This document shows positions 19,027 to 59,408 of a stretch of DNA of 64,000 nt, piece after piece. The position numbers and the translations under genes were made by a program. This DNA is from Eledone cirrhosa (taxonomy: Eukaryota). The stretch is from the NCBI GenBank assembly GCA_964016885.1, contig OZ024741.1:177134001-177198000 (forward strand). Direction: 5' to 3'. Positions within the stretch are counted from its first letter, which is position 1; every line of letters starts with the position of its first letter. A model generated the notes under the pieces. That model was given only the letters and a program-made list of their open reading frames with translations, made no database searches and was not told the origin of the DNA.

Positions 19027-19059
<33 letters not shown>

Positions 19060-19082: not shown

Positions 19083-19117
<35 letters not shown>

Positions 19118-21015: not shown

Positions 21016-21050
<35 letters not shown>

Positions 21051-21073
21051 ATATGTGTGTATATATGTATGTG

Positions 21074-21106
<33 letters not shown>

Positions 21107-28880: not shown

Positions 28881-28909
28881 GAATTTGGGATCACCAAATA
28901 ATCTCTCCT

Positions 28910-30000: not shown

Positions 30001-30050
30001 ATAATAATAATAATAATAATAATAATAATAGCAATAATAATAATAATAAT
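30001..30050. repeat. (AAT)n tract, left boundary of the retrotransposon nest; other tracts at 36003-36032, 39297-39362, 41761-41838, 47865-47890, 51139-51159, 57168-57190
   Basis: Directly visible; every element junction in 30001-57201 is an (AAT)n tract. Confidence 0.97.
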
Positions 30051-33000: not shown

Positions 33001-36000
33001 TTGAATTGTGGACAGCCTATGCTAGACCTATCTATTTCCCTACAAAATACTCTATCTAGATATGATCTGGATGACCCTATGCGGTTTGTCCAAGTCCACA
33101 TTGGCACTTTCGGGAAATCCAATCGGTACCTGTCAGACAGTTCAAAACGCTGAGCAGGTTGGTGAGGCTCTTGCACCCTCCACCCCTATCCGCTAATCCC
33201 ACACAGTCCCAGCGTGCATCTAAGATCCCGTTCCAGTCGCCCACTAACACTAAAGAGTGGGACGTTCCAAGAAAGGTCTCCAGACGCCGGAAGAAATCAG
33301 GCCGCCCTGCTCCTGTCGGGGCATAGACGGCCACTAGCCTGAAAGCTTGCCCGTCTCCGCTGGTCACGTCCAGCAGCACCAGCTTACCCTCTGGGTCCAG
33401 GAAGATGGCCCGTATGGCGAGATCCAAACCTCTCCGAAAAAGCACAGCAACTCCTCCACCCGATCCAGGACGGCTGGGAGATGCGTACACATCGTAGCCG
33501 CCGAAGATCGGTGCGAAGGCCCGTGCTTCGGAGATTCTGGTCTCGCTGATGGCCACTACATCTATGTTTAGTGACCTGAGGTCGTTGAGCAGGTGACCCT
33601 GCTTCCATGACGACCCCAAGCCACGCGCATTTATGCTGCCTATTCTGAGTGAGGTCATGTTTAAAATAGAGTGGAAAAGATGGGAAAGACCACTTACCGT
33701 ACTTTTGGTAGAGGAGGGATGGTTTTTACATCCCTTTTCACTTGATCGTCTGGTGAAGGGACCGTTGAATCGTCCCTTCGGCTGGTCGTCGGCTCTTCTA
33801 AGAGAATGTCTGAATATACTCTTCGATTGATGGTTCCTCCTAGGTCCCTGAAATGACCAACTGCGTTGGGGAATTTCGTTTTAATGTTTGTGTATTGTTT
33901 CTGTGCTATTTTTAGCAGTCTTATGTTAGTTGGCGTTTTGATTGGTGCTGGTATTATGTAGTCCTGTTGTGAAATGTCTGTGTGTTCAATTATGTAAGTC
34001 ATTAGTTTCTTGTTGTGTGTTTATTGCCGTGCATTTGTTTTTCTGGGGGTGGGGTATGGTTCTGCTATTTTCTTGTCGTTGTTGCTGGGTGTGTGTGTTT
34101 TGTTGTTGTGTTTGCGATGTTGGTGCTTGTGGTGGTGGTGTTGAAGGTGTTGTTGGCAGTGGGGTTGTCGCCGGTGGTGATGGTGGTGCTAGTGTGGGTG
34201 GTGATGGTGTTGGTGGTGTTGCTGCTGTGGGTCTCTTTGCAGTAGACTTTACCCTTTTCTCATTTCTTTCCTCCCTTTTCAAAGGCGACGATGCGCTGCT
34301 TCTGCGTTTGTGCCTTCTTGCGACCTTTTGCCATCCCTCTCCCACCTCACACTCCATGTCTGATTCTGTGAGGTCGGGGAGGGGTACCAGCTCCACTCTT
34401 TCACTTGTTGTTGTTGGTGATGTTTGCACTGGAGTCTCTGTTGCAGCTGCATTTGGTATTGCTGTTGTTGTTGTTAATATTTCCATTGCTGCTGCTTTTT
34501 TGATTTCCGTGGAGTGGGTATGGGTGCCACGGACCTATCGTTCCTGGTTGCCGCTTGTTCTGTTGCTGGTAGCCGTGGAGCCGGATTCGGAAGGAGAGGG
34601 GTTTTCTCCTTTCTCAGGGTCTTCTCGTTGCAGAAGGCCCTGAGGTGAGTCTTCGATCCACAGCGAAAGCATTTCGGGCGTTTGCCCTCAACACTTATGG
34701 GCAGTTGAGTGCCGTTATCGAAGTCTATCATATCCGGGATAGCTTCGATGCACTCCTGGTTGGTTTGGATTAGCATCTCAATGGAGGAGCCGACCCAATC
34801 TTCTCTTACTTTTTTCTGTACTTGCAGTACAGTTCTTTTGTCCTCGATTCCGACGAGGACAGACGCGGCCAGCCAAGAAGGGGTCATTCCGGGGGTGACG
34901 TGGGTCAGTTTGACCCTCACAATTTTTTGCCCGCAGTAGGAGGGCACCAACACCATTTCCTCGCTCCTTAGGGTCACTACTGATTGGGCCTTTGCCTCCT
35001 GGGGTTTGGCAAAAAGTACGTCTACGGTGGCATATTTTTTGCCTCGGGTGATGTGCGTTTTCCGCTGCCACACAGACCCCAAGGCTTTTTGTATTTGGGC
35101 CTCTGTGGCTCTTTCCACCCTACGGGATTTTGTACTTACTGTACGGTACGTGACCGTACAGTGCTGTTGGTTTTCGAAAAATGTTTCCGCTGCCTTGCAG
35201 ATTGCTCGGTGTCCGTTCTTTGTCACCATCTTCTTCGCTTCCTCTAATTCCTCATTTGTTATGAGGATTGTTTCCAAGTTTTTCGCAATACCTGCAAATG
35301 AGATTGGTTTTTCTCTGCTGTTGTTGTTGTCGTCAGAGCTGCTGGTACTTGTGTTGTTGCTGCAGGTACTACGACTACTGCCTCCGCCGCTGTTGCTGTG
35401 GTTGTTGTTGGTGTTGCTGCTGCTAATGCTGTTGTTGTTTATGCTGCTGGTGATGCTGTTGCGGCTGCTACTGTTGTTTTCATTGTCACTGTTGCTGTTG
35501 TTATTACGGCTGCTACTGCTATTATTCCTGACGTCAGACGAATGAACTGGGTTTTCGTATTTCCCGAACACCTGTTTCGTCGCTGTCGTCGTCGTCGTGG
35601 AGAAACCTTGCACGCTTTGCACGAGACTTTTCTTTTCTTTCGTCACTTGCAAAAGAGAAGGGAGGGAGAGAGACACATTTAAAGAAGGGAGGGAGAGAGA
35701 CAATCTTCTCTCTGCTGTAGTGATGATTGAGGAAGAAGAAGACGGAATGAGTGGGAGTGACGTATGAAATTTCTTTTTCGTAGCTTTGTTGTTTTTTGTT
35801 CAAAATGAAATTTTGGGTACAAAACCCCAACAACTGGTTATTTAACCCCGAAGGGCCAAATAACGGACAGAAAGACCCCTCTCACGAGGAGGAGGGTGTC
35901 TTTATCAACAATTTGGTTCAAGTTTTAAACAATTTACAATTGTTTTAACGGTTAAAAATTACTATACCTTACAGAGCCGAGCCTCCGTCAACCATGGCAT

Positions 36001-36002
36001 TC
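30051..36002 (-). mobile_element. Full-length Tx1/L1-clade non-LTR retrotransposon, copy A (ORF1 and ORF2 disrupted)
   Basis: Colinear with copy B; ORF2 split into 33077-33658, 32355-33176, 31685-32293, 31056-31772 and 30294-31046; two small deletions near 32297 and 32360. Confidence 0.93.
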
Positions 36003-36032
<30 letters not shown>

Positions 36033-36033
<1 letters not shown>

Positions 36034-39000
36034 TATTGATCAGATCAAGTTATTAGCACTAAGTCAGCGAAGGCAAAATGAAACATGTGTCAGTGAAAAC
36101 GAGGTAAATTGTAACACTTTGAATCCCAGGGTTGGGGCAGAATCACTGGCAACAGAACAAATTAAAGAAAGGATCGAACAAGTGGAGGGAGTGCATGCTC
36201 AAGATGAAACTCCAAATGGAAATAATGAGATCGTAAATGATAAAGAAATGAATGAGAATAAACTTGCCAACTTGAAGGATGAAATTATGATCGAATGGAT
36301 GAAAATGAAAGAATCTGACATGGGGCAACGAGACACCCTCCCTAAGATCCAGAACTCCAAACAGAACCAAAAGATAATACACAAGACTGACATAATTCTC
36401 AAAAACATTATCATCACAAACAAACTAAACATTACTTATTTAAATCATCTCTATTATGCATCGGCTAAAGTCACCACTCACTTATGTGGAGTGAAGATGA
36501 AAAAACAAAGGAATTCCCACAAGAAATCTACTTGGCAAAGAGAACATCAATCGCCAAATAAACCTTCTCCGATCTGACATAGAAATTTTAACAAACTATA
36601 AAGTAGGTGAACATGTTAAATAAACTAAACTTAGAAAATTGAAAAAAAGTACAGTATAAAATCAACAAGTGACATAGACATGCTGATAGAAATAATCAAG
36701 CAAAAAGTGTCGGTCAAAGCTGCTCGTATAAGGCGCTAAATCAATACCACCCAAGGAGGAAGTGCAAGAATTCTGGGAAAAGATCTGGGCCGAAGAAAAA
36801 GTTCATAACATACATGCCCCATGGATAGACAGACAAATGAAAGATACAGCTCACCTTGAGGAACAAATATGGGAAAATATAACAGTTGAACAGTTGCGCT
36901 TGGCTCTAAGAAAAACCAGCAAATGGAAATCCCCAGGAAAAGACAAAATACAAAACTTTTGGATAAATGCCTTCACAGAGTCTCATGAGCTGTTAGCCCA
37001 ACTTTACAATGAAATAGTTAAGGAGCCAGAAAAGATACCATCATGGCTAGTTAACGGATTACATTCCTGCTTCCGAAGAATGATGAGACAAACAATCCCA
37101 AAAATTACAGATCGATAACTTGCTTGACCACAATGTATAAAATTTTAACATCAGTCCTAACTGAATACACATATGACCACCTGATAACAAATGACCTATT
37201 TCCCATTGAGCAGAAAGGGTGTAAACGAGGCTCATATGGCTGTAACGATCAGCTTCTGGTTAACAAATTGATACTGGAAGATTTTCATAATAGACACAAC
37301 AATCTATCGATTGCTTGGATAGATTATAAAAATGCATTCGATAGTTTGCCACACAGTTGGATTGAAAAATGGTTGGAGATTTTCAAAATATCCCCCGTTG
37401 TCAGGAGGTTTTTGTCATTCAGTATGAAGACATGGAAAACGACACTCCTTTTGAATAGTGAAACAAAATCACTGGAAGCTGGAGAAGTTAATATTAATTG
37501 TGGAATTTTTCAGGGTGACTCTTTATCACCGCTTTTATTCTGCATCGCACTTATACCATTAAGTAAAATGCTCAATGATGACAAAACCATTAATCACTTG
37601 TTCTACATGGATGACCTGAAACTATTTGCAAAAAATGATGAACAATTGCAAGGGCTATTATCCACTGTGAAGCAGTTCAGTGATGACATTAAAATGGGTT
37701 TGGACTAGATAAATACGCCAAAGCAACGTTCACCAGATGCAGGCTGCTGAAGAGTTCAGACATTAATCTTGATCGGGGGAACGTGATAAGAGAACTTGAT
37801 CAAGAAAAAGCTTACAGATATCTAGGTGTTTGTGAAGGAGACGGAATCAAGCACTCGACAATGAGGGAAAGGATAAGGAAGGAATGTTACCGCAGAGTAA
37901 GAGCAATCTTAAGAACGGAATTGAATGCAAGGAATAGGATCGATGCCATAAACACGCTTGCCATACCTGTAGTAAACTACAGTTACAATGTCATCAACTG
38001 GTCAAGCACACAGATCCGTAGGCTCGATACAACAATTCGAAAATTCTTAACCATGCACAGAATGCATCACCCTAAGGCAGATATAGATAAAATATATCTC
38101 CCTAGGAAAGAAGGAGGACGTGGGTTAATGCAGTTAGACATTGCGTTGAAAACTGCAACAATTGGATTATCTACATATCTAAGGGAATCACATGATTGGA
38201 TGATCAAACTCGTTTTGAAACACGAAAGCATCAAAAGATCCTATTCAATTACAAAAGATGCACAAAGATACAGTAATGGACTACAAATTTCAGAAGTCCT
38301 ATTTACTGCTGAAATGGAAAACACAGAAAAAGCAAAGCAGGTAAAAGTAACTGCAAAGAAAGAACTGCTACAGAAACTGGCTAAGAAATGGCAAGAAAAG
38401 CCTTTGCATGGAAAATACCCAGAGCGAGCTAACAATCCTGATGTTGACAAAACTTTAACCCATCAGTGGTTGGCATCCTCTGGACTGAAATCGGAGACTG
38501 AAGGACTGATTATATCAGCACAAGATCAGTGTCTGCCCACAAAAAATTACCAAGCCAACATAATAAAAAATGGATGCAGCCCATTATGCTGTGTATGCAA
38601 AAAACAACCAGAGACCATTGACCATATAATTTCAATGTGCAGTCCTATAGCTCCAACCGAATACCTAAACAGGCATGACAGAGCTACACAATACATACAT
38701 TGGATAATGTGTAAGCATTTTGACCTGCCCCATCAAAAGAATTGGTGGGAGCATCAACCACCTCCCATACATGAAAAAGATCACATCCCAATCTTGTGAA
38801 ACTTTAGCATCCAAACAGACCGAAAAATAGATGCAAATAGACCTGATATAATATTGAAGGACTTTAACAATAGGGTATGCCTGCTAATTGATATGTCTGT
38901 TCCAATAGACAAGAATGTATCTATAAATAATTTGAAAAATTGAGCAAGTATAAGGACCTGGAGATAGAAATTGGAAAAATGTGGAAATTGAGAACTAAAA

Positions 39001-39295
39001 CAATACAAGTGGTTGTAGGCGCTCTGGGAATGATACCTAAGGGGTCTAATGAATACTTATCGCAAATCCCAGGAAACCCGCGTATAGGAGAAATACAAAA
39101 GATAGTACTAATGGGAACTGCCCATATACTAAGGAAGATTCTGTCAATATAAGTACATTACAAGTCCAAACACTAAAGATGCATGTGTGAGTATGTATGT
39201 TCTTTCTTGAACATGGCGGACCTTGTTGTCTCTTGATGTCAATGGTTGTGACTTGGTGATAACTCGTATGAACATAAAGACAGATAAATGCAACT

Positions 39296-39296
<1 letters not shown>
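36033..39296 (+). mobile_element. R4/Dong-clade RT-RLE element, family 1 copy 1 (5'-truncated, disrupted)
   Basis: FQGDSLSPLLF, YMDD, HPKADID..LPRKEGGRGL, CCHC, RHD, NRPD, KYKDL, VVGALG in broken frames; (TAA)n at the 3' end. Confidence 0.92.
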
Positions 39297-39362
<66 letters not shown>

Positions 39363-39365
<3 letters not shown>

Positions 39366-41755
39366 GAAAGATCAGAACCTTGGTGGAAGAAACGACTGAA
39401 GGGAAAGAAAGAGGCAACGACTAAGACATTCTGGAGAGGAATATTGGAGGAGAATGTTTAACATAATGACCAGGCAGTGTGGATTGAGACTGTACAAAAG
39501 GAGATTAGTGAACAGGAACACCAACAAACTGATTTGAGTATGATAGATGAAACTCTTAAGGAGCAGGCCAAAAAACTAACCAACTGGAAACCATCAGGCC
39601 CAGATGGTGTGCAGGGGTATTGGATTAAAAATATAACATCCCCCCCCCCCCCGAAACTGACAACAATGTTCAATGACTGCTTGATGTCAGGTGAGGTACC
39701 AGAGTGGTTGACAAAAGATACCACAGTTCTGGTAATGAAAAACCGAATCAAGCTTAATGATGTTACCAACTATAGACCTTTCACATGTCCCTATTGTGGA
39801 AACTGTTGACAAGCATTGTGTCTGAGGAAATCTACCATCACCCCCACATAAACAACTTGTTCACGGACGAACAGAAATGATGCCGAAAGAAGCCCCGTGG
39901 TACAAAGGACCACTTACTTATTGATAAGATGGTAATGAGGAAATGCAAGGAAATGCCATGTGATGGATAGACTACAAAAAGGCATTTGGTGCCCCATTCT
40001 TGGATCACCAAATGCCTAGAGATCTTCAAGGAGGCAGATAACATCAGACAGTTGTTGAGCAAGAGTATGAACTCCTGGAAAACAGAGTTAACATCAGCTG
40101 GAGAATCCTTTGGAGGTGTGAAGATCAAGAGAGGTATCTTCCAGGGAGATAGTCTGTCCCCGCTGTTGCTTGTCGTTGCCCTGATGCCCCTGACCATTAT
40201 ACTGCGAACAGTGAGAGCAGGATACAATTTGGGAAAGGGAGAGCTTACCATCAATCACCTCTTCTTCATGGACGATCTTAAGCTCTCCGGGAAGAGTGAG
40301 AAGGAGTTGGATGTGCTTGGTGACACTGTCCGTATTTTCAGCAATGATATATGTATGCAATTTGGTATTAGTAAGTGTGGAGTCATTGTGATGAAGAGGG
40401 GTAAATTGAGCAGAAGCAATGGAATCTAGGTCGCAACAGGTAAGATGATAAAGGAAATTGACACTGAAGAAAGATACTAGTATTTGGGGGTTCTGGAGGC
40501 TGATGACATCAAGAACAAAAAAACGAAGATCTGAATCCATTCGGAGAGTAAGGAGCGTATTAAAGTCACATCTGAACAGTAGGAATGCCATAAGTGCAAT
40601 AAATTCCGGAGCTGTGTCTATTATTAGGTACAGTGCGGGAATTCTGAGATGGAATGTTGCTGAACAAAAATAAATGCATAGGAAGACTAGGAAGCTATTG
40701 ACTATCTACATGTTCCACAAGAGGAGTGATGTCGATAGACTCTACTTAAGGAGATCTGAAGGTGGAAGAGGTCTTATCAGTATAGAGGACTGTGTTCAGA
40801 TGGAGAAAAACAACCTACACAAATACGTGACTGATACTAAGGAGCCAATGCTCAGAATTGTATTGAAGGAGACGACAATAGACCAGGGGATGTCCAAGGA
40901 GGAAATAACAACAAGGAGAAAGAGCAGCCTTCATGAAAAATCCCTTCATAGTACCTTCTTTGAGAAAACTGAATTCGAAGATCCACAGACATGGAACTGG
41001 TTGAAAAGAGGAGAACTTAAAAAGGCTACAGAAGGAATGCTAATAGCTGCGCAAGAGCAGGACCTCAAAACGAAGTTTGTGAAACACCATATTTACAAGG
41101 AGAGGCTGGCCCACTGTGCAGGATCTGTGGAGAGAGGAGATTGTGGTTCACATTGTATCCGAGTGTAAACACCTAGCCCAGACTCACTATAAAGGCTGGA
41201 GACATGATGTGATGGGCCTGGTGATCCATTGGCACCTATGCAAAGTAAAAAGTTTACCACATTCTGAGAAGTGGTATGAGCATAAGCCAGAGTCGGTGAT
41301 GCAAAATGATCAGGTGAAGGTGCTGTGGGATTTTAGGATACACACGGACAATAAACTGGAACACAATTGACCTGACCTGGAGGTTTTGGACAAAGACAAA
41401 GATCGTGCCTGATTGTAGATGTAGCCTGCCCATTTGCCACGAGATTGCAAGAAAAGGAGAGGGAGAAAATTAACCGATACCAGGACTTAAAGTGGGAGGT
41501 AAAAAGGATTTGGAACTGCCATGAAGTCAAAGTGGTCCCGATTGTCATAGGCGCACTAGGTACTATCTCAAGGAGTTTCCAGGGATGGTTAAAGAAGATT
41601 ATTCCAGCCCGCTTTTTGGAACACTTCAAAAGGCATGCTTGCTGGGGTCAGCAAGAACCCACCGATACGTCCTGAATATCTGACGCTGCAGGTAGCAGCT
41701 TAATATTCATTTCAACAAACTTTCCAGTTAACCAACATCAATGACTGAGACTCAA
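39363..41755 (+). mobile_element. R4/Dong-clade element, family 2 (5'-truncated, more decayed)
   Basis: GPDGVQGYWIK, FQGDSLSPLL, FMDD, HKRSDVDRLYLRRSEGGRGL, RHD, KINRYQDL, VVPIVIGALG; (AAT)n at the 3' end. Confidence 0.9.
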
Positions 41756-41760
41756 ACAAC

Positions 41761-41840
<80 letters not shown>

Positions 41841-42100
41841 TTTCTTTATTAACCACAAGGGTTTACATAAAGTAGACATTAAGGACAGTGCAGGACAATG
41901 CAGGACGGTACAAATGGGCATTTCTGCGTGTAAAAAAACAAAAACAGAGGATGTAACAAAAATAACAATGAAAATAACAATGAAAAATTCCCCAATAGGG
42001 GGGAGACTTCGGAGGGACATTTGTGGAGAAAGCCCAGTAAAAAGCCACAATGACCCTGACCACCAAGGCAAGTGCCCTCTCCCAGTTTTCCACCTTTAGT

Positions 42101-45100
42101 TTACAGATATATACTCAGAGTCGGCCCATTCACTCGGGCCATTCTTGCTTCTCTCACCCATCTTTCAACAAAATGCTGGGAAGAGAGCACTTCCTTCTCT
42201 ACTCTGATTTTCCTTTTCAAATGAAATTTGAAAAAGTCAATCAGAGCATCACCGAAGAGGTAAGTGCTCGTCTTCAGCCCTTTCAAACGTGTCCACCATA
42301 CTATCTCTTTCGCCATGGCCACCAGACAGATAAAAACTGCCTGCCCTTCCCGGCTAAAGGAGGAGGGCGGGGCAATCCTCACGATAGACTCAGATGATAG
42401 CTGGATCCGTCCTAAACGCGACAGCAGGTGTTCGACATAAACCCACAAGTCAGCAATTTTCGGACACTGGACGAGTGCGTGCAGGACGGTTTCGTCGCCC
42501 TGCGCGCATCTCGGACATGCCCGGCTGACGGCACCTCCATGCCTGTAGAGTTTATCCCGAACTGGCAAGGCTCCTCGGTAGCACTGCCAGGCCAGAGATT
42601 TCTGGAAGTTGTCCATAGGCCCTGGCCCGAAAGTTCTTCCGAAGAGATTGGCTAGTTGATTTTCGTCGACGCCTAGAGTTTCCCCAAGTACGTCGTCGCT
42701 CTTCCCCTCCACTAATCCTCTATAGAACGCCGAGGTGGAGTTTCCACCGATCACATTGCCCGATTGGTCGAGGGCTGTGAGCGCCTGAAGACATTCCAGT
42801 CTCCAGGCGCTCCCTCTCGGTCTTCGCTTGACCCAGGACTGCAGCTCCGTCAAGGAAACGAGCTGGGGAAAAACGCGTCTAGCAAACGGCGACCACACCT
42901 GATCACCGTCGAGGAAGAGGTGGAGATGTCGTAGCCTGAGCGCGTGCCTGCGCATCATCAGCCACGGCATGCCCAGCCCTCCACGTAGCGGGTGTTGACA
43001 ACAGATGGACCGCCTGACCATCGGAGCACGTCCCTTCCACAAAAAGCGAAAGAGCAAACGCTCCAGCGCAGTCAGGCGAGGCTTAGGACAAGGTACGACG
43101 GTTAGGCGGTAGCAGATGACAGACGCGATGTACGCGTTAGCCACCTCCGCTCGACCTTTCAGGGATAGCTTCCTCTCCGCCCATTTCTGGGTGAGAGAAG
43201 CCACCCTGCTCGTCACCTCGTCCCAGTTTTTGTCCGTCTGGAGGTCCGGACCGAACCAGACCCCTAGCAATTTAACCGGTCCGTCCGTCCAGCGCCCGAC
43301 GACGCTGTTGGACGGCATGGACCTGCCTCTCCAGGTGCCGAGCTGCAGGCCCACTGACTTTTCCTGGTTGATCATTGCTCCTGTCACCGCTTCGTATTCT
43401 CTTAGTGTAGTGCCGATCGCCTCGATGTGTTTGGCGTTCGACACCACTACGGTGACATCGTCCGCATATGCTGACACGGATCTTCCGCATCCTAGTTCGC
43501 GCGGGACTCCCCTCAACGTCTCCAGTTTGTGCAGTAATGGCTCGAGAGTCAATACGTACAAGAGGGACGAGAGGGGACATCCTTGGCGGACCGAGCGCAT
43601 GATGTTGAACGGTTCCGACAGGTGACCGTTCACTCTCACCACAGAGCAGATGTCGCTGTGCATGGCAGCGATCCAGCCTCTGAAGACGGGCCCAAAGCCA
43701 GCCGCCCTCAGGACTGCCGCTAGGTAACGATGGTCGACCCTATCGAAAGCTTTCGACTGATCTAAATTGATCAAGGACCCACCCGTGCCAGGTTCCCTAG
43801 CTACCCTCTCTACGATGTATCGCATGAGGTGGAGGTTGTCGTGGATGGATCTGTCGGGAATGGCGCATGTCTGCGCCTCTCCCACCAGACCACCAACGAC
43901 AAGCGCCAACCTCTTTGCTAGCACCTTGGCCAAAATCTTAAACTCTGTGTTTAGCAGAGTTATGGGCCGGAAATTGTCTATGTTATCCCCCTTGTTCGGA
44001 TCCTTTCTCAGCAGTGCCACCGCTCCTCGGCTCACAGAACTGGGAATTCTCCCGTTCTGTTGCCAGTTGCAGTAGACGTCCGCCAAGAGGCCTCCGAACA
44101 AGTCTGGCATCTGTACGTAAAGTTCATAGGGCAGACCATCCAAACCAGGCGATTTACCCCTTGTGCAGCCAGTCATTGCCTCCCGTACTTCAGCGGCTGT
44201 TATCGGCTTTTCGCAACACCTCGCCTCAGTGGCCGAGAGCCGCGGCAGCCCGTCGAGGTAGACACTAAAGTCCATCCCTCTACCCGGCCCCCCGCTGCCC
44301 CCGAACAGCTGAGCGAAGTGTCGCTGAAAAGCTTCACACATTTGCCCGGGATCGAGTAGCATGCGCCCGTCGTGGTCCACCAAAGACCGGATCGTGGCTT
44401 TGTTGCCACGACGCGCCTCCGCCACTCGGGCCCATTGAACGGCTTTCGTCCCCTCGTGTCTGAGAGCACGCACCCTAGCTCTGACAACGCAGCCTTCGTG
44501 CTTTGCATTGAAGAATTGGTCAAGGGCCAATTTCGCCGCAAGCACGTCGGTCGCAATGCCTTTGCTAAGCGCCTCGTCTAATTTTTTAACTAGTTCTCCC
44601 TCTGCTCTATTTTTCTCTATTGCTAAAGCCTTACTAAACCTAATCGATTCTATTCTAATCGCTCTTTTCAGAGCAAACCACCACTTGTTGTTGACGATGG
44701 CCCCCGTCAACGCCCGCTTAACTAGTTCGCTAATCCGGTCTCTGTAGGCCTTGCGCGCTGGTAAGGACGCGTTTAGCTTCCAGTAGCCGGGTCCTCGTCT
44801 ATGAAGCCTATCTAAGTCAAGCACACAGGTCACGAATTTGTGGTCCGTGTAGCTGACTATCTTGAATTGTGGACAGCCTATGCTAGACCTATCTATTTCC
44901 CTACAAAATACTCTATCTAGATATGATCTGGATGACCCTATGCGGTTTGTCCAAGTCCACATTGGCACATTCGGGAAATCCAATCGGTACCTGTCAGACA
45001 GTTCAAAACGCCTGAGCAGGTTGGTGAGGCTCTTGCACCCTCCACCCCTATCCGCTAATCCCACACAGTCCCAGCGTGCATCTAAGATCCCGTTCCAGTC

Positions 45101-45520
45101 GCCCACTAACACTAAAGAGCGGGACGTTCCAAGAAAGGTCTCCAGACGCCGGAAGAAATCAGGCCGCCCTGCTCCTGTCGGGGCATAGACGGCCACTAGC
45201 CTGAAAGCTTGCCCGTCTCCGCTGGTCACGTCCAGCACCACCAGCTTACCCTCTGGGTCCAGGAAGATGGCCCGTATGGCGAGATCCAAACCTCTCCGAA
45301 AAAGTACAGCAACTCCTCCACCGGATCCAGGACGGCTGGGAGATGCGTACACATCGTAGCCGCCGAAGATCGGTGCGAAGGCCCGTGCTTCGGAGATTCT
45401 GGTCTCGCTGATGGCCACTACATCTATGTTTAGTGACCTGAGGTCGTTGAGCAGGTGACCCTGCTTCCATGACGACCCCAAGCCACGCGCATTTATGCTG
45501 CCTATTCTGAGTGAGGTCAT
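42101..45520 (-). CDS. Tx1-clade ORF2: APE endonuclease + reverse transcriptase + C-terminal zinc knuckle (1139 aa, intact)
   Basis: GSINARGL, SETR, VYAP, VGDWN, SYLDR, TDHK, GPGYWKLN, KSPGLDGL, FRPITLLN, DQSKAFDRV, QGCPLS, AYADD, GGLGMP, CPRC..ETVLHALVQC. Confidence 0.96.
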   Translation of the reverse strand: MTSLRIGSINARGLGSSWKQGHLLNDLRSLNIDVVAISETRISEARAFAPIFGGYDVYASPSRPGSGGGVAVLFRRGLDLAIRAIFLDPEGKLVVLDVTSGDGQAFRLVAVYAPTGAGRPDFFRRLETFLGTSRSLVLVGDWNGILDARWDCVGLADRGGGCKSLTNLLRRFELSDRYRLDFPNVPMWTWTNRIGSSRSYLDRVFCREIDRSSIGCPQFKIVSYTDHKFVTCVLDLDRLHRRGPGYWKLNASLPARKAYRDRISELVKRALTGAIVNNKWWFALKRAIRIESIRFSKALAIEKNRAEGELVKKLDEALSKGIATDVLAAKLALDQFFNAKHEGCVVRARVRALRHEGTKAVQWARVAEARRGNKATIRSLVDHDGRMLLDPGQMCEAFQRHFAQLFGGSGGPGRGMDFSVYLDGLPRLSATEARCCEKPITAAEVREAMTGCTRGKSPGLDGLPYELYVQMPDLFGGLLADVYCNWQQNGRIPSSVSRGAVALLRKDPNKGDNIDNFRPITLLNTEFKILAKVLAKRLALVVGGLVGEAQTCAIPDRSIHDNLHLMRYIVERVAREPGTGGSLINLDQSKAFDRVDHRYLAAVLRAAGFGPVFRGWIAAMHSDICSVVRVNGHLSEPFNIMRSVRQGCPLSSLLYVLTLEPLLHKLETLRGVPRELGCGRSVSAYADDVTVVVSNAKHIEAIGTTLREYEAVTGAMINQEKSVGLQLGTWRGRSMPSNSVVGRWTDGPVKLLGVWFGPDLQTDKNWDEVTSRVASLTQKWAERKLSLKGRAEVANAYIASVICYRLTVVPCPKPRLTALERLLFRFLWKGRAPMVRRSICCQHPLRGGLGMPWLMMRRHALRLRHLHLFLDGDQVWSPFARRVFPQLVSLTELQSWVKRRPRGSAWRLECLQALTALDQSGNVIGGNSTSAFYRGLVEGKSDDVLGETLGVDENQLANLFGRTFGPGPMDNFQKSLAWQCYRGALPVRDKLYRHGGAVSRACPRCAQGDETVLHALVQCPKIADLWVYVEHLLSRLGRIQLSSESIVRIAPPSSFSREGQAVFICLVAMAKEIVWWTRLKGLKTSTYLFGDALIDFFKFHLKRKIRVEKEVLSSQHFVERWVREARMARVNGPTLSIYL

Positions 45521-45555
45521 GTTTAAAATAGAGTGGAAAAGATGGGAAAGACCAC

Positions 45556-47651
45556 TTACCGTACTTTTGGTAGAGGAGGGATGGTTTTTACATCCCTTTT
45601 CACTTGATCGTCTGGTGAAGGGACCGTTGAATCGTCCCTTCGGCTGGGCGTCGGCTCTTCTAAGAGAATGTCTGAGTATACTCTTCGATTGATGGTTCCT
45701 CCTAGGTCCCTGAAATCACCAACTGCGTTGGGGAATTTCGTTTTAATATTTGTGTATTGTTTCTGTGCTATTTTTAGCAGTCTTATGTTAGTTGGCGTTT
45801 TGATTGGTGCTGGTATTATGTAGTCCTGTTGTGAAATGTCTGTGTGTTCAATTATGTAAGTCATTAGTTTCTTGTTGTGTGTATTTATTGCCGTGCATTT
45901 GTTTTTCTGGGGGTGGGGTGTGGTTCTGCTATTTTCTTGTCGTTGTTGCTGGGTGTGTGTGTTTTGTTGTTGTGTTTGCGATGTTGGTGCTTGTGGTGGT
46001 GGTGTTGAAGGTGTTGTTGGCGGTGGGGTTGTCGCCGGTGGTGATGGTGGCGCTAGTGTGGGTGGTGATGGTGTTGGTGTTGTTGCTGCTGTGGGTCTCT
46101 TTGCAGTAGACTTTACCCTTTTCTCATTTCTTTCCTCCCTTTTCAAAGGCGACGATGCGCTGCTTCTGCGTTTGTGCCTTCTTACGACCTTTTGCCATCT
46201 CTCTCCCACCTCACACTCCATGTCTGATTCTGTGAGGTCGGGGAGGGGTACCAACTCCACTCTTTCACTTGTTGTTGTTGGTGATGTTTGCACTGGAGTC
46301 TCTGTTGCAGCTGCATTTGGTATTGCTGTTGTTGTTGTTAGTATTTCCACTGCTGCTGCTGTTTTTGATTTCCGTGGAGTGGGTATGGGTGCCACGGGCC
46401 TATCGTTCCTGGTTGCCGCTTGTCCTGTTGCTGGTAGCCGTGGAGCCGGATTCGGAAGGAGGGGGGTTTTCTCCTTTCTCAGGGTCTTCTCGTTGCAGAA
46501 GGCCCTGAGGTGAGTCTTCGATCCACAGCGAAAGCATTTCGGGCGTTTGCCCTCAACACTTATGGGCAGTTGAGTGCCGTTATCGAAGTCTATCACATCC
46601 GGGATAGCTTCGATGCACTCCTGGTTGGTTTGGATTAGCATCTCAATGGAGGAGCCGACCCAATCTTCTCTTACTTTTTTCTGTACTTGCAGTACAGTTG
46701 TTTTGTCCTCGTTTCCGACGAGGACAGACGCGGCCAGCCAAGAAGGGGTCATTCCGGGGGGGACGTGGGTCAGTTTGACCCTCACAATTTTTTGCCCGCA
46801 GTAGGAGGGCACCAACACCATTTCCTCGCTCCTTAGGGTCACTACTGATTGGGCCTTTGCCTCCTGGGGTGTGGCAAAAAGTACGTCTACGGTGGCGTAT
46901 TTTTTGCCTCGGGTGATGTGCGTTTTCCTCTGCCACACAGACCCCAAGGCTTTTTGTATTTGGGCCTCTGTGGCTCTTTCCACCCTACGGGATTTTGTAC
47001 TTACTGTACGGTACGTGACCGTACAGTGCTCTTGGGTTTCGAAAAAGTTTTTCGCTGCCTTGCAGATTGCTCGGTGTCCGTTCTTTGTCACCATCTTCTT
47101 CGCTTCCTCTAATTCCTCATTTGTTATGAGGATTGTTTCCAAGTTTTTCGCAATACCTGCAAATGAGATTGGTTTTTCTCTGCTGTTGTTGTTGTCGTCA
47201 GAGCTGCTGGTACTTTTGTTGTTGCTGCAGGTACTACGACTACTGCCTCCGCGCTGTTGCTGTGGTTGTTGTTGGTGTTGCTGCTGCTAATGCTGTTGTT
47301 GTTTATGCTGCTGGTGATGCTGTTGCGGCTGCTACTGTTGTTTTCATTGTCACTGTTGCTGTTGTTATTACGGCTGCTACTGCTATTATTCCTGACGTCA
47401 GACGAATGAACTGGGTTTTCGTATTTCCCGCACACCTGTTTCGTCGCTGTCGTCGTCGTCGTGGAGAAACCTTGCACGCTTTGCACGAGACTTTTCTTTT
47501 CTTTCGTCGCTTGCGAAAGAGAAGGGAGGGAGAGAGACACATTTAAAGAAGGGAGGGAGAGAGACAATCTTCTCTCTGCTGTAGTGATGATTGAGGAAGA
47601 AGAAGACGGAATGAGTGGGAGTGACGTATGAAATTTCTTTTTCGTAGCCAT
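45556..47651 (-). CDS. Tx1-clade ORF1 (gag-like; Ser/Asn-rich N-terminus, CCHC knuckle, Pro/Thr-rich tail) with one 1-bp frameshift at ~47251
   Basis: ATG at 47651 (MATKKK, also in copy C); CFRCGSKTHLRAFC; copies A and C read GCCTCCGCCGCTG where B has GCCTCCGCGCTG. Confidence 0.85.
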
Positions 47652-47698
47652 GTTTTTTTGTTTAAAATGAAATTTTGGGTACAAAACCCCAATAACTG

Positions 47699-47726
47699 GT
47701 TATTTAACCCCGAAGGGCCAAATAAC
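47699..47726 (-). promoter_or_regulatory. 12-bp stem with C(UUCG)G tetraloop in the Tx1 5'UTR
   Basis: GTTATTTGGCCC-TTCG-GGGTTAAATAAC; loop and most of the stem retained in copies A and C. Confidence 0.55.
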
Positions 47727-47889
47727 GGACAGAAAGACCCCTCTCACGAGGAGGAGGGTGTCTTTATCAACAATTTGGTTCAAGTTTTAAACAATTTACA
47801 ATTGTTTTAACGGTTAAAAATTACTATACCTTACAGAGCCGAGCCTCCGTCAACCATGGCATTCAATAATAATAATAATAATAATAATA

Positions 47890-50800
47890 AAGAAAGGAGT
47901 GAAAAAGTGGAGGGAGTGCATGCTCAGGATGAAACTCCAAATGAAAATAATGAGATCGTAAATGATAAAGAAATGAATGAGAATGAACTTGCCAACTTGA
48001 AGGATGAAATTATGATCGAATGGATGAAAATGAAAGAATCTGACATGGGGGAACGAGACACCCTCCCTAAGATCCAGAACTCCAAACAGAACCAAAAGAT
48101 AATACACAAGACTAACATAATTCTCAAAAACATTATCATCACAAACAAAATAAACATTACTGACTTAAATCATCTCTATTATGCATCGGCTAAAGTCACC
48201 ACTCACTTATGTGGAGTGAAGATGAAAAAACAAAGGAATTCCCACAAGAAATCTACTTGGCAAGATAACATCAATCGCCAAATAAACCTTCTCCGATCTG
48301 ACATAGAAATTTTAACAAACTATAAAGTAGGTGAACATGTTAAACAAACTAAACTTAGAAAATTGAAAAAAAAGTACAGTATAAGATTAACATGTGACAT
48401 AGACATGCTGATAGAAACAATCAAGCAAAAAGTGTCGGCCAAAGCTGCTCGTATAAGGCGCTTTGAAAAACGATCTAGACTCTATAAGGACAATAATATG
48501 TTCAAAAACAACCAAAGAAACTTCTACAGAAAAATTGGTAAGTCAACAATAACTGCTAAATCAATACCACCCAAGGGGGAAGTGCAAGAATTCTGGGAAA
48601 AGATCTGGGCCGAAGAAAAAGTTCATAACATACATGCCCCATGGATAGACAGACAAATGAAAGATACAGCTCACCTTGAGGAACAAATATGGGAAAATAT
48701 AACAGTTGAACAGTTGCGCTTGGCTCTAAGAAAAACCAGCAAATGGAAATCCCCAGGAAAAGACAAAATACAAAACTTTTGGATAAATGCCTTCACAGAG
48801 TCTCATGAGCTGTTAGCCCAACTTTACAATGAAATAGTTAAGGAGCCAGAAAAGATACCATCATGGCTAGTTAACGGATTACATTCCTGCTTCCGAAGAA
48901 TGATGAGACAAACAATCCCAAAAATTACAGATCGATAACTTGCTTGACCACAATGTATAAAATCTTAACATCAGTCCTAACTGAATACACATATGACCAC
49001 CTGATAACAAATGACCTATTTCCCATTGAGCAGAAAGGGTGTAAACGAGGCTCATATGGCTGTAAGGATCAGCTTCTGGTTAACAAAATGATACTGGAAG
49101 ATTGTCATAATAGACACAAAAATCTATCGATTGCTTGGATAGATTATAAAAAAGCATTTGATAGTTTGCCACACAGTTGGATTGAAAAATGTTTAGAGAT
49201 TTTCAAAATATCCCCCGTTGTCAGGAGGTTTTTGTCATTCAGTATGAGGACATGGAAAACGACACTCCTTTTGAATAGTGAAACAAAATCACTGGAAGCT
49301 GGAGAAGTTAACATTAATTGTGGAATTTTTCAGGGTGACTCTTTATCACCGCTTTTATTCTGCATCGCACTTATACCATTAAGTAAAATGCTCAATGAAA
49401 CAAAACATGGATATAGAGTCTATGACAAAACCATTAATCACCTGTTCTACATGGATGACCTGAAACTATTCGCAAAAAATGATGAACAATTGCAAGGGCT
49501 ATTATCCACTGTGAAGCAGTTCAGTGATGACATTAAAATGGAGTTTGGACTGGATAAATGCGCCAAAGCAACGTTCACCAGAGGAAAGCTGCTGAAGAGT
49601 TCAGACATTAATCTTGATCGGGGGAACGTGATAAGAGAGCTTGATCAAGAACAAACTTACAAATATCTAGGTGTTTGTGAAGGAGACGGAATCAAGCACT
49701 CGACAATGAGGGAAAGGATAAGGAAGGAATGTTACCGCAGAGTCAGAGCAATCTTAAGAACGGAATTGAATGCAAGGAATAGGATCGATGCCATAAACAC
49801 GCTTGCCATACCAGTAGTAACCTATAGTTACAATGTCATCAACTGGTCAAGCACAGAGATCCGTAGGCTCGATACAAAAATCCGAAAATTCTTAACCATG
49901 CACAGAATGCATCACCCTAAGGCAGACATAGATAGAATATATCTCCCTAGGAAAGAAGGAGGACGTGGGTTAATCCAGTTAGACATTGCGTTGAAAACTG
50001 CAACAATTGGATTATCCACATATCTAAGGGAATCACATGATTGGATGATCAAACTCGTTTTGAAACACGAAAGCACCAAAAGATCATATTCCATTACAAA
50101 AGATGCACAAAGATACAGTAATGGACTACAAATTTCAGAAGTCCCATTTACTGCTGAAATGGAAAACACAGAAAAAGCAAAGCAGGTAAAAGTAACTGCA
50201 AAGAAAGAACTGCTACAGAAACTGGCTAAGAAATGGCAAGAAAAGCCTCTGTATGGAAAATACCCAGAGCGAGCTAACAATCCTGATGTTGACAAAACTT
50301 TAACCCATCAGTGGTTGGCATCCTCTGGACTGAAATCGGAGACTGAAGGACTGATTATATCCGCACAAGATCAGTGTCTGCCAACAAAAAATTACCAATC
50401 CAATATAATAAAAAATGGGTGCAGCCCATTATGCCGTGTATGCAAAAAACAACCAGAGACCATTGACCATATAATTTCAATGTGCAGTCCTATAGCTCCA
50501 ACCGAATACCTAAACAGGCATGACAGAGCTGCACAATACATACATTGGATAATGTGTAAGCATTTTGACCTGCCCCATCAAAAGAATTGGTGGGAGCATC
50601 AACCACCTCCCATACTTGAAAAAGATCACATCTCAATCTTGTGGAACTTTAGCATCCAAACAGACCGAAAAATAGATGCAAATAGACCTGATATAATATT
50701 GAAGGACTTTCAAAGGAGGGTATGCCTGCTAATTGATATGTCTGTTCCAATAGACAAGAATGTATCTATAAAAACATTTGAAAAATTGAGCAAGTATAAG

Positions 50801-50998
50801 GACCTGGAGATAGAAATTGGAAAAATGTGGAAATTGAGAACTAAAACAATACCAGTGGTTGTAGGCGCTCTGGGAATGATACCTAAGGGGTCTAACGACT
50901 ACTTATCGCAAATCCCAGGAAACCCGCGTATAGGAGAAATACAAAAGATAGTACTAATGGGAACTGCCCATATACTAAGGAAGATCCTGTCAATATAA
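47890..50998 (+). pseudogene. R4-clade RT + CCHC + RLE reading frame, open except for one frameshift at ~48878
   Basis: ORFs 47856-48938 and 48944-50998 join as WLVNG/ITFLLPKNDETNNPKNYRSITCLTTMYKILTS; YMDD; CRVCKKQPETIDHIISMC; NRPDIILKD..LIDMSVP..KLSKYKDL. Confidence 0.92.
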
Positions 50999-51138
50999 GT
51001 ACATCACAAGTCTAAACACTAAGGATGCATGTGTGAATATGTGTGTTCTTTCTTGAACATGGCGGACCTTGTTGTCTCTTGAGGTCACTGGTTGTGACTT
51101 GGTGATAACTCGTATAAACATAAAGCAAGATAAATGCA
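47890..51138 (+). mobile_element. R4/Dong-clade element, family 1 copy 2 (5'-truncated)
   Basis: Highly similar to 36160-39296; bounded by (AAT)n. Confidence 0.94.
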
Positions 51139-51159
51139 AATAATAATAATAATAATAAT

Positions 51160-54100
51160 GAATTCTTTATTAACCACAAGGGTTTACATAAAGTAGACAT
51201 TAATGACAGTGCAAGACAATACAGGACGGTACAAATGGGCATTTCTGCGTGTAAAAAACAAAAACAGAGGATGTAACAAAAAATAACAATGAATGATTCC
51301 CCAATAGGGGGAGACTTCGGAGGGACATTTGTGGAGAAAGCCCAGTAAAAGGCCACAATGACCCTGACCACCAAGGCAAGTGCCCTCTCCCAGTTTTCCA
51401 CCTTTAATTTACAGATATATACTCAGAGTAGGCCCATTCACTCGGGCCATTCTTGCTTCTCTCACCCATCTTTCAACAAAATGCTGGGAAGAGAACACTT
51501 CCCTCTCTACTCTGAGTTTCATTTTCAAATGAAATTTGAAAAGGTCAATTAGATCATCACCGAAGAGGTAAGTGCTCGTCTTCAGCCCTTTCAATCGTGT
51601 CCTCCATACTATCTCTTTCGCCATGTCCACCAGACAGATAAAAACTGCCTGCCCTTCCGGGCTAAAGGAGGAGGGCGGGGCAATCCTCACGATGGACTCA
51701 GATGATAGCCGGATCCGTCCTAAACGCGACAGCAGGTGTTCGACATAAACCCACAAGTCAGCAATTTTCGGACACTGGACGAGTGCGTGCAGGACGGTTT
51801 CGTCGCCCTGCGCGCATCTCGGACATGCCCGACTGACGGCACCTCCATGCCTGTAGAGTTTATCCCGAACTGGCAAGGCTCCTGTAGCACTGCCAGGCCA
51901 GAGATTTTTGGAAGTTGTCCATAGGCCCCGGCCCGAAAGTTCTTCCGAAGAGATTGGCTAGTTGATTTTCGTCGACGCCTAGAGTTTCCCCAAGTACGTC
52001 GTCGCTCTTCCCCTCCACTAATCCTCTATAGAACGCCAAGGTGGAGTTTCCACCGATCACATTGCCCGATTGGTCGAGGGCTGTGAGCGCCTGAAGACAT
52101 TCCAGTCTCCAGGCGCTCCCTCTCGGTCTTCGCTTGACCCAGGACTGCAGCTCCGTCAAGGAAACGAGCTGGGGAATTACGTGTCTAGCAAACGGCGACC
52201 ACACCTGATCACCGTCGAGGAAGAGGTGGAGATGTCGTAGCCTGAGCGCGTGCCTCAGCATCATCAGCCACGGCATGCCCAGCCCTCGACGTAGCGGGTG
52301 TTGACAACAGATGGACCGCCTGACCATCGGAGCGCGTCCCTTCGACAAAAAGCGAAAGAGCAAACGCTCCAGCGCAGTCAGGCGAGGCTTAGGACAAGGT
52401 ACGACGGTCAGGCGGTAGCAGATGACAGACGCAATGTACGCCTTAGCCACCTTCGCTCGACCTTTCAGTGATAGCTTCCTCTCCGCCCATTTCTGGGTGA
52501 GAGAAGCCACCCTGCTCGTCACCGCGTCCCAGTTTTTGTCCGTCTGGAGGTCCGGACCGAACCAGACCCCTAGCAATTTAACCGGTCCGTCCGTCCAGCG
52601 TCCGATGATGCTGTTGGACGGCATGAACCTGCCCTTCAGGTGCCGAGCTGCAGGCCCACTGACTTTTCCTGGTTGATCATTGCTCCTGTCACCGCTTCGT
52701 ATTCTCTTATTGTAGTGCCGATCGCCTCGATGTGTTTGGCGTTCGACACCACTACAGTGACATCGTCCGCATATGCTGACACGGAACTTCCGCATCCTTG
52801 TTCGCGCGGGACGCCCCTCAACGTCTCCAGTTTGTGCAGTAATGGCTCAAGAGTCAATACGTACAAGAGGGACGAGAGGGGACATCCTTGGCGGACCGAG
52901 CGCATGATGTTGAACGGTTCCGACAGGTGACCGTTCACTCTCACCACAGAGCAGATGTCGCTGTGCATGGCAGCGATCCAGCCTCTGAAGACGGGCCCAA
53001 AGCCAGCCGCCCTTAGGACTGCCGCTAGGTAACGCTGGTCGACCCTATCGAAAGCTTTCGACTGATCTAAATTGATCAAGGACCCACCCGAACCAGGTTC
53101 CCTAGCTACCCTCTCTACGATGTATCGCATGAGGTGGAGGTTGTCGTGGATGGATCTGTCGGGAATGGCGCATGTCTGCGCCTCTCCCACCAGACCACCA
53201 ACGACAAGCGCCAACCTCTTTGCTAGCACCTTGGCCAAAATCTCGAACTCTGTGTTTAGCAGAGTTATGGGCCTAAAATTATCTATGTTATCCCCCTTGT
53301 TCGGATCCTTCCTCAGCAGTGCCACCGCTCCTCGCTCACAGAACTGGGAATTCTCCCGTTCTGTTGCAGTTGCAGTAGACGTCCGCCAAGAGGCCTCCGA
53401 ACAAGTCTGGCATCTGTACGTAAATTACATAGGGCAGACCATCCAACCAGGCGATTTACACCTTGTGCAGCCAGTCATTGCCTCCCTTACTTCAGCGGCT
53501 GTTGTCGGCTTTTAGCAACACTTCCCCTCAGTGGCCGAGAGCCGCGGCATTCCGTCGAGGTAGACACTAAAGTCCATCCCTCGACCCGGCTCACCGCTGC
53601 CCACGAACAACTGAGCGAAGTGTCGCTGAAAAGCTTCACACATTTGCCCGGGATCGAGTAGCATGCGCCCGTCGTGGTCCACCAAAGACCGGATCGTGGC
53701 TTTGTTGCCACGACGCGCCTCCGCCACTAGGGCCCATTGAACGGCTTTCGTCCCCTCGTGTCTGAGAGCACGCACCATTGCTCTGACAACTCAGCCTTCG
53801 TGCTTTGCATTGAAGAATTGGTCAAGGGCCAATTTCGCCGCAAGCACGTCGGTCGCAATGCCTTTGCTAAGCGCCTCGTCTAAATGTAAAACTAGTACAC
53901 ACTCTGCTCTATTTTTCTCTATTGCTAAAGCCTTACTAAACCTAATGGATTCTATTCTAATCGCTCTTTTCAGAGCAAACCACCACTTGTTGTTGACGAT
54001 GGCCCCCGTCAACGCCCGCTTAACTAGTTCGCTAATCCGGTCTCTGTAGCCCTTGCGCGCTGGTAAGGACGCGTTTAGCTTCCAGTAGCCGGGACCTCGT

Positions 54101-57100: not shown

Positions 57101-57167
57101 ACAATTGTTATAGTGTTCAAAATTTACAATACCTTACAGAGCCGAGCCTCCGTCAACCATAACATTC
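51160..57167 (-). mobile_element. Full-length Tx1/L1-clade retrotransposon, copy C (multiple indels)
   Basis: Colinear with copy B from 5' end to 3' end; ORF2 in many pieces; followed by (AAT)n(GAA)n to ~57201. Confidence 0.93.
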
Positions 57168-58007
57168 AATAATAATAATAATAATAATAAGAAGAAGAAG
57201 ATATCTAGTGTTTTCAGCTGAGTAATTTCTGTGATCCGTAATTCTTCAGATCTCTATTCAAAACAACACAAATTTGTTCCTCAAAACGCGCAACTAATCA
57301 TATATGAACACTTTTTTCACAAGAATCCTCAAATTAACTATTCATTCCCTTTATTTCTGTTAAACCCCTCAACACTTCTCGTCTTGTAACATGCTACTCA
57401 CTCAAATTCAATCTGTACTCTAAAATACTTGCTAAATTTTTTTAAGGCATACTGTTCCTCATGACTTCCTCGTCGCATTGTTGCTGTTATTATTAGAATA
57501 GACTTTGAAGCCACAAGTGTATCATCTATTCCTGTTCAAGATTTAGTCTATTGTCCAACATGTTAGTACTTTTGTTTTCAGATTGGAGGTCATAATTATT
57601 TAGTATTTCTAGCTTTTAGAAATTCCACGTGCATAATGACTCTTAAGATCATCTATATATCTGGTGAGGTTGTTTAATTTGAAATATTCCAGTGACTTCA
57701 GTAGATATATTTCTAACGTAAATAATATTAACAATTTCTCCTCGCATGCAAGCATCTACTAAGGATCATCGAAATGAAGTAGCTGCAGATTTATCCACTA
57801 CATTGTGTTTTTCTTACAGCTTTACTTAGAGAAAATTTGCAACGGAAGAGAGAGAAAAATAAAAACAACGAACTATAATAACAACTATTACGAACAGAAA
57901 CTCTACTGTTTGAACCCTTATTGATTCTACGCATACTATACATTGCAATAAATAAATGCACATTGCGTCCGACTATACGAATCATTATATTTCTCTCTCA
58001 CATAGAG

Positions 58008-58215: not shown

Positions 58216-59408
<1,193 letters not shown>

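Follow-up and report, generated by a model that had tools for sequence, protein, structure and literature searches.

Full-length Tx1-like retrotransposon copies, probably independent insertions, in an (ATT)n nest of Eledone cirrhosa

We examined a 64-kb stretch of the Eledone cirrhosa genome (assembly GCA_964016885.1, contig OZ024741.1, positions 177,134,001 to 177,198,000 of the forward strand; hereafter the window, numbered from its first letter), in which three full-length copies of a long interspersed nuclear element (LINE) of the L1 group, likely of the Tx1 clade, are embedded in (ATT)n repeats. The account that we favour, and consider rather probable, is that the three copies are likely independent insertions made through predicted nicks between T and A on both target strands, and that their common 5′ end likely reflects a fixed transcription start rather than any special joining. 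Anatomy, junction phases, (ATT)n at the six ends and selection signatures can be read directly; from these we infer all the enzymatic steps. The three copies, found by self-comparison of the window, are:

30051 to 36002, minus strand: Tx1-like copy A, full length, decayed; a mosaic of a B-like 5′ part of ~4 kb and a more divergent 3′ part of ~2 kb, with the switch near 32020
41839 to 47864, minus strand: Tx1-like copy B, full length, the youngest of the three
51160 to 57167, minus strand: Tx1-like copy C, full length, the most decayed; its 5′ untranslated region (UTR) is 11.7% off that of B, with an identical first base

The copies are 5952, 6026 and 6008 bp long, respectively, and diverge by 2.47% (A-B), 3.77% (B-C) and 4.89% (A-C). 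All begin at the equivalent base (36002, 47864 and 57167), in the phase ATT/GAATG (the slash marking the join), right after (ATT)10, (ATT)8 and (ATT)7. All end in AATAAAGAA followed by AA, AT or TT and a final C directly before ATT (AATAAAGAAxxC/ATT), with poly(A) in none. The preliminary description of this DNA, made from the letters alone, had reported three full-length copies of ~6 kb with a common 5′ junction after (ATT)n and no poly(A), which was confirmed on all three; the sharing of junctions is complete for the 5′ start but not for the 3′ end, which is less uniform, as the two nucleotides preceding the final C differ in each copy. Also confirmed was an intact open reading frame (ORF) 2 in copy B together with a single 1-bp deletion in its ORF1, absent from A and C, which we place at ~47253 rather than 47251. 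Copy A has lost the ATG of ORF1 and carries six frameshifting deletions and one nonsense codon, and copy C ten frameshifts and three nonsense codons, many of its lesions being 1-bp deletions; both ORFs are intact in none of the three. The proposed youth of the family hence fits B best and A and C poorly, and copy B supports a lineage that was active until recently, as judged from its sequence. Two tight clusters of private changes in B (44582-44587 and 47030-47052) are perhaps patches from another subfamily.

Together with three Dong/R4-type elements on the opposite strand, the copies form a nest of 27 kb (30002-57197) in which a repeat run separates every element from the next, in the order repeat, A (-), repeat, R4-1 (+), repeat, older R4 (+), repeat, B (-), repeat, R4-2 (+), repeat, C (-), repeat:

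30002 to 30050, plus strand: (AAT)n run with one interruption, adjoining the 3′ end of A
36003 to 36032, plus strand: (AAT)10, between the 5′ ends of A and R4-1
36033 to 39296, plus strand: R4-1, Dong/R4-type element, decayed, probably 5′-truncated
39297 to 39362, plus strand: (TAA)22, between R4-1 and the older R4 element
39363 to 41760, plus strand: older Dong/R4-type element of another family (~30-43% amino acid identity to R4-2), 5′-truncated
41761 to 41838, plus strand: (AAT)26, adjoining the 3′ end of B
47865 to 47888, plus strand: (AAT)8, between the 5′ ends of B and R4-2
47889 to 51138, plus strand: R4-2, Dong/R4-type element with reverse transcriptase (RT) YMDD, CCHC, RHD and PD..D..K motifs; its start, at a 3-nt microhomology, lies 131 bp deeper into the element than that of R4-1
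51139 to 51159, plus strand: (AAT)7, at the 3′ ends of R4-2 and C
57168 to 57197, plus strand: (AAT)7(AAG)3, at the 5′ end of C, followed by unique flank

All six Tx1-like termini abut runs of at least six units, and the eight (AAT)n runs of that length in the window all lie at nest junctions, the nine runs elsewhere having only 3-4 units; within the window, the association of the copies with the repeat is not due to chance. The (AAT)10 run cannot be the 3′ tail of A or of R4-1, because the 5′ ends of both face it. The possibility that the runs are mere 3′ tails was ruled out in the same way: three runs face 5′ ends, and the repeat is therefore a target and not a tail. Tx1 families have been called target-specific when more than 20% of their flanks share one target (PMC4494074), and here all six ends do so, at one locus, which supports the earlier proposal of a site-specific, (ATT)n-associated family. 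Any target-site duplication would be hidden within the repeat. At 29890 to 30000 (minus strand), a possible decayed remnant of a related ORF1 knuckle (independent E-value 0.028) starts at the edge of the (AAT)n run and is oriented like the Tx1-like copies; it could be an old truncated relative.

The coding capacity of the family is best seen in copy B:

45556 to 47651, minus strand: ORF1 of B, ~698 codons, ATG at 47651; low-complexity ends, CCHC zinc knuckle, 1-bp deletion at ~47253
42101 to 45520, minus strand: ORF2 of B, 1139 amino acids, intact; apurinic/apyrimidinic (APE) endonuclease, RT and C-terminal CCHC; begins 35 nt past the ORF1 stop

Pfam recognizes APE, RT and zf-RVT domains in this ORF2, whose RT motif is YADD and in which all ten checked motifs are present, and a comparison with the PDB gave L1 ORF2 as the closest solved structure (E-value 2e-52, versus 1e-21 for R2). 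Argonauta hians is the source of its best named homolog (74% over 41% of the searched region), which points to a likely octopod host. An Atlas search of ORF2 returned no clade name, and our RT trees were quick trees that held unlabelled relatives only (one with 43 of 102 RT rows, one with 25 rows). ORF1 had no significant Pfam match in the window, L1 ORF1 included, its CCHC knuckle being read as a motif in the sequence; it resembles Atlas clusters of the zf-CCHC and ZCCHC3-RBD type. An exhaustive search retrieved 282 ORF1 relatives where a word-index search gave none, and a zinc-knuckle match was found in 12 of 20 scanned homologs (E-values up to 0.1). Tx1-clade elements carry an ORF1 with a CCHC knuckle instead of the mammalian L1 ORF1. 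The copies combine this knuckle-type ORF1 with the APE, RT and C-terminal CCHC expected of the L1-group ORF2 of the Tx1 clade, and the 3′ poly(A) tail of mammalian-type L1 is found in none of them. The Tx1 clade thus fits because of the L1-group ORF2, the CCHC ORF1, the repeat targeting and the missing poly(A), and the family is likely a two-ORF L1-group retrotransposon belonging to that clade, an assignment made by these features. Known members of the clade target U2 genes, transposons, or (TC)n, (TTC)n or (TTCC)n repeats (PMC4494074).

A scan of genome contigs via RT motifs yielded 44 loci, of which 38 (L001-L037 and L044) come from contigs of a single bacterial metagenome-assembled genome, CAXXMW01, whose arrays are probably host-animal DNA. 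These elements are the RT sister group of the Eledone family (support 100), with a homologous ORF1 (E-value 4e-10) and ~41% ORF2 identity. They form at least 365 kb of head-to-tail arrays of intact and very recent Tx1-like LINEs without spacer, with a period of 6.4-6.9 kb, neighbouring ORF2s 0-0.4% apart and several ORF1/5′ UTR subfamilies mixed within arrays. With the unit boundary set at the second AATAAA, 45 of the 48 downstream copies, representing 30 of the 32 distinct junction types, are full-length, the three odd units being 5′-truncated copies; poly(A) occurs in none, and none of the 40 complete ORF2 matches has a stop. The elements end shortly after AATAAA, their joins are varied (32 types in 48), and the 365 kb of arrays contain no ATT runs. 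Between the two AATAAA at the 3′ end lies a conserved ~250-nt block with a TATA-like motif, which might drive the next copy. Conservation of the 5′ UTR between the Eledone family and CAXXMW01 (TTGAATG, a similar hairpin) was considered and rejected, the scores being reached by 3-97 of 100 shuffles in 24 comparisons; for the 3′ UTR, they were reached by 1-20 of 100 shuffles in 12 comparisons.

The L1 endonuclease nicks at the consensus 5′-TTTT/AA-3′ (PMC1950540). A T/A nick on the (AAT)n strand yields a 3′ flank starting with ATT, and one on the (ATT)n strand a 5′ flank ending in ATT; both phases are seen in all three copies. In the mechanism that we propose, the APE domain would first nick the (AAT)n strand at T/A, and the element RNA, which cleavage or read-through would have left with a few AUU units after AAUAAA, would pair with the nicked strand. 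In most cases, the RT would then get as far as the 5′ end, a property that the wider lineage likely shares, and a second T/A nick on the (ATT)n strand would leave an ATT end to be joined to the first base, giving ATT/GAATG. The repeat would be retained on both sides of every insertion, leaving the site available as a target, and the Dong/R4 elements would use the same repeat in the opposite orientation, the two clades together having built the 27-kb nest. RNA cleavage usually occurs 10-30 nt past AATAAA. With the signal placed 6 nt short of the end of the element, a cut at such a spacing would land in the repeat that follows; we propose that the poly(A) is missing because the AUU units on the RNA would pair with the nicked strand, and RT starting inside the repeat would copy no poly(A). 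The differing two bases before the last C might record separate priming events. Annealing of target-like RNA has been proposed for SART1 (PMC7265360).

Several points weigh against this account: the T/A reading assumes L1-like chemistry, the sample is three copies from one nest, and the uniformity of the three joins, in contrast to the many join types of the sister lineage, is what a degree of pairing at the 5′ end would produce. Such pairing was at the heart of the preliminary description, in which transcripts would start in the upstream (ATT)n, and the cDNA, ending in repeat units, would pair with the target through these and thereby give the second strand a precise start. We regard that model as a genuine contender, though an unlikely one. 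Upstream 28S sequence does give uniform R2 junctions, more than 80% being precise with it and none without (PMC3774820), and melanogaster-type R1 likewise joins precisely through upstream sequence (PMC2718515); here, all three joins lack visible extra bases, while those of the R4 neighbours and of the sister lineage vary. However, ancestral-type R1 makes precise junctions without upstream pairing (PMC2718515), the T/A phase alone already predicts the ATT before the join, and the sister lineage reaches 45 of 48 full-length copies without microsatellites. A few ATT units at the RNA 5′ end would not be visible in the DNA, and the flanks have no upstream non-repeat sequence in common, the R4 copies excepted. 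Since T/A nicks fit both phases and precise joins are known with and without pairing, a special 5′-joining mechanism is possible but unneeded.

How unusual full length is depends on the clade. The preliminary description took it as surprising on the ground that LINE copies are usually 5′-truncated, a premise that does not hold generally: polymorphic insertions in Anolis are complete in 43% of L1, 41% of R4 and 62% of RTE1 cases (PMC5389967), and 45 of 48 copies are full-length in the sister lineage, although stickleback L1/Tx1 shows the opposite trend with 9 full-length among 406 copies (PMC3381678). At the Anolis L1 rate of 0.43, three of three has a probability of 0.08; the full-length fraction has a one-sided 95% lower bound of 0.37, and the comparison with the R4 neighbours (3/3 versus 0/3) gives a Fisher p of 0.10. 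Three full-length copies of three are thus not much of a surprise. The high full-length yield without a microsatellite in CAXXMW01 points to a lineage trait, but RT motifs served to select those loci, and the arrays may have been amplified as DNA; with one truncated junction present in two places, such amplification inflates the CAXXMW01 counts. A stronger version, to which we give low credence, is that the Eledone family and its sister lineage represent a Tx1-like group that almost never 5′-truncates, integration being completed only once RT has arrived at a structured 5′ UTR or at a repeat tag on the 5′ end. If this were true, the Dong/R4 elements truncating at the same (ATT)n in the same genome would form, with the family, a naturally paired comparison on the causes of LINE truncation, and the family would be an APE-based tool that places full-length copies precisely in a dispensable microsatellite; avoidance of truncation genome-wide would likewise offer a clean comparison for LINE 5′ truncation and a candidate for targeted insertion.

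The preliminary description would have been undone had the three copies proved to be DNA-level duplicates of one insertion, and the evidence came out against this. Changes private to B in coding sequence comprise 17 synonymous and 16 nonsynonymous substitutions (omega 0.30, p=0.0006); this purifying selection implies rounds of retrotransposition after the split from A. In A, the 3′ part carries 31 synonymous and 29 nonsynonymous changes (omega 0.30, p=4.5e-6) and the first 4 kb 2 and 24, consistent with ordinary decay of ~0.7%. At a single point, the rate of private change in A rises abruptly from 0.7% to 4.0%, a shift reached in 0 of 500 permutations, and A is therefore read as a mosaic of two lineages; recombinant Tx1 families are known, such as stickleback family A (PMC3381678). 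Copy C has its own flank, and its 5′ UTR differs from that of B by 11.7%, against 2.7% private change elsewhere. The neighbouring R4-1 and R4-2 start 131 bp apart and differ under selection (omega 0.47, p=0.002), and the adjoining blocks diverge unequally (1.38% for A-B versus 2.78% for the R4 pair, p=4e-5). Once the two segments of A are separated, the Tx1 copies show no excess identical tract (557 and 535 of 5000 permutations). From selection, the mosaic structure of A and the 5′ UTR and flank of C, the three copies are probably independent insertions.

Some observations pull the other way. Selection on C (p~0.015 in a first count) weakens under a stricter count (omega 0.74, p=0.058). A and B face the same R4 family in register, the differences between A and B, when pooled over the 5′ 4 kb, do not depart from neutrality (14 of 51 being synonymous, p=0.32), selection on B in that part is visible only when the differences are split by branch (heterogeneity p=0.0016), and the R4 pair shares an identical tract with a common frameshift (reached in 1 of 5000 permutations), a sign that exchange or polishing occurs here:

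48578 to 48963 and ~36760-37145, plus strand: 386-bp tract identical between R4-2 and R4-1, containing a common frameshift

This tract may stem from local conversion or from assembly polishing. One could thus suppose that a single insertion gave rise to both A and B, R4 neighbours included, through duplication or conversion of the DNA, leaving only two independent 5′ junctions: A with R4-1 and B with R4-2 are direct repeats in register ~11.8 kb apart, and the first ~970 bp of the R4 pair are also neutral-like (3 synonymous, 16 nonsynonymous). We find this quite improbable, because the B branch in the 5′ 4 kb has 12 synonymous and 13 nonsynonymous changes (p=0.007), private substitutions in the first 812 nt are asymmetric (eight in A, none in B), the R4 starts differ, the repeat lengths are unequal and the 3′ 2 kb of A come from another lineage; C is independent in any case. 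That the array or the mosaic features are assembly artefacts is barely credible: collapsed or mis-polished repeats could produce the identical R4 tract and the abrupt switch in A, and C has many 1-bp deletions, but the copies differ by 2.5-4.9%, errors do not make synonymous-rich differences, and recombinant Tx1 families exist (PMC3381678).

The untranslated regions were inspected for signals of 5′ processing:

47652 to 47864, minus strand: 5′ UTR of B, 213 nt, starting GAATG; folds better than shuffled sequences (z-score -2.3; copy C, -2.5)
47699 to 47726, minus strand: predicted 12-bp hairpin with a C-UUCG-G loop within the 5′ UTR of B; no compensatory changes among the three copies
41839 to 42100, minus strand: 3′ UTR of B, 262 nt, with AATAAA 6 nt before the end and no poly(A); no folding signal (z-score -0.1)

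Among the three close 5′ UTR sequences, 1 of 60 pairs shows covariation. The Rfam scan of the window gave nothing at the gathering level, with only chance-level matches at the 5′ end, and a scan with a hepatitis delta virus (HDV)-like ribozyme descriptor of our own gave no strict match and one relaxed match starting at +26 instead of +1, a result also reached by 37 of 200 shuffles. With no HDV-like ribozyme found at or upstream of the 5′ end, where R2-, R4- and Dong-type processing would place it, we give almost no weight to a self-cleaving ribozyme that would cut read-through RNA back to G1, in the manner of Drosophila R2, R4 and Dong, even though the element begins with G after T, its 5′ UTR is structured and Dong has a 5′ HDV-like ribozyme (PMC3774820). 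A splice-donor-like AAG/GTA lies at +35 of the element, with no conserved acceptor.

Among known systems, the family resembles Kibi, Koshi and the crocodilian Tx1 families in being an APE-type L1-group LINE inserted in a simple repeat that is kept on both sides (PMC4494074, PMC3812793), a likeness drawn from their descriptions. The repeats reported for them, in fish and crocodilians, are (TC)n, (TTC)n, (TTCC)n and (TTTC)n, whereas the target here is (ATT)n; of the (TC)n or (TTC)n of Kibi and Koshi, only three CTT units were seen, beyond the run at C. With mammalian-type L1 it shares the ORF2 layout, the catalytic residues and the T/A nick phase, and it differs in the missing poly(A), the knuckle-type ORF1, the short 5′ UTR and the apparent repeat targeting. 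The TAA/ATT target is that of the R4-clade elements Dong of Bombyx mori, DongAg and DongBg, and the R4 neighbours here are of this type. Dong, however, has a restriction-like endonuclease and a 5′ HDV-like ribozyme, while the Tx1-like family has APE and no ribozyme match, and the Dong relatives here have the (TAA)n strand as sense, opposite to the Tx1-like family. Two families sharing one repeated target recall TRAS1 and SART1 in telomeric repeats, where TRAS and SART insert in opposite directions (PMC7265360), and R1 and R2 in 28S ribosomal DNA are documented to join precisely at a full-length 5′ end (PMC2718515, PMC3774820). Unlike in these systems, the target is a dispersed microsatellite and the pair that shares it combines APE with a restriction-like endonuclease; SART1, moreover, keeps a poly(A).

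In the literature searched, from which subscription papers and Repbase were outside scope, we found no (ATT)n-targeting Tx1 element, the repeat being known there only as a Dong/R4 target. The family is thus probably a new member of the target-specific Tx1 elements that shares its target with Dong/R4. This would add (ATT)n to the targets of APE-type Tx1-like elements. Endonucleases of two unrelated kinds have here come to use a single microsatellite, which has been enlarged in this way to a 27-kb nest; such nests are a plausible contributor to the repeat load of octopod genomes. In Octopus vulgaris, the L1-Tx1 elements fall into 80 families, 13 of which contain 421 young near-full-length insertions (mean 5.4 kb), and the Dong-R4 elements into 51 families with 1129 such copies (PMC13282606); the Eledone family or a relative may be among these L1-Tx1 families; the available part of that account gave no targets, junctions, truncation rates or sequences. 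A distant relative from the contig scan (L038:3036-10166, ORF2 identity 28%) lies between a complete and a partial U1 small nuclear RNA gene, accompanied by a duplicated stretch of 157 bp and a short poly(A); it would be a U1-targeted or U1-headed element, recalling the target-specific Tx1 elements in multicopy RNA genes.

The Dong/R4-type neighbours combine, by motifs and junctions, an RT, a CCHC and a restriction-like endonuclease with insertion in (TAA)n, the repeat that Dong elements target, in a snail among others (PMC3812793). Their joins to the repeat differ among the three. The preliminary description had treated them as 5′-truncated. In favour of this, R4-1 and R4-2 span ~3.3 kb with frames open from the first base, while young near-full-length Dong-R4 copies in O. 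vulgaris average 4.19 kb (4,732,901 bp over 1129 copies; PMC13282606), but the only longer homolog found, P0261, begins downstream of the R4-1 and R4-2 starts and cannot confirm the truncation.

Outside the nest, a decayed element at 2846-6707 (minus strand) has RT-like and GIY-YIG-like pieces and appears Penelope-like by eye, with no Pfam support, and a fragment at 27924-28901 (minus strand) shows a restriction-like endonuclease-type motif by eye, with no significant Pfam match. Decayed RT fragments at 25984-27330 (plus strand; RVT_1 E-values 3e-5 and 3e-3) look RTE-like by eye. A palindrome of ~2.8 kb (18675-21458) has mirror-image ORFs and (TA)n-rich arms, with a weak 43-bp match to the low-complexity end of ORF1. 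Finally, direct local duplications of 210-280 bp with 96-99% identity occur in (TA)n-rich sequence at 1606-2505, 8590-9268 and 58334-59242.

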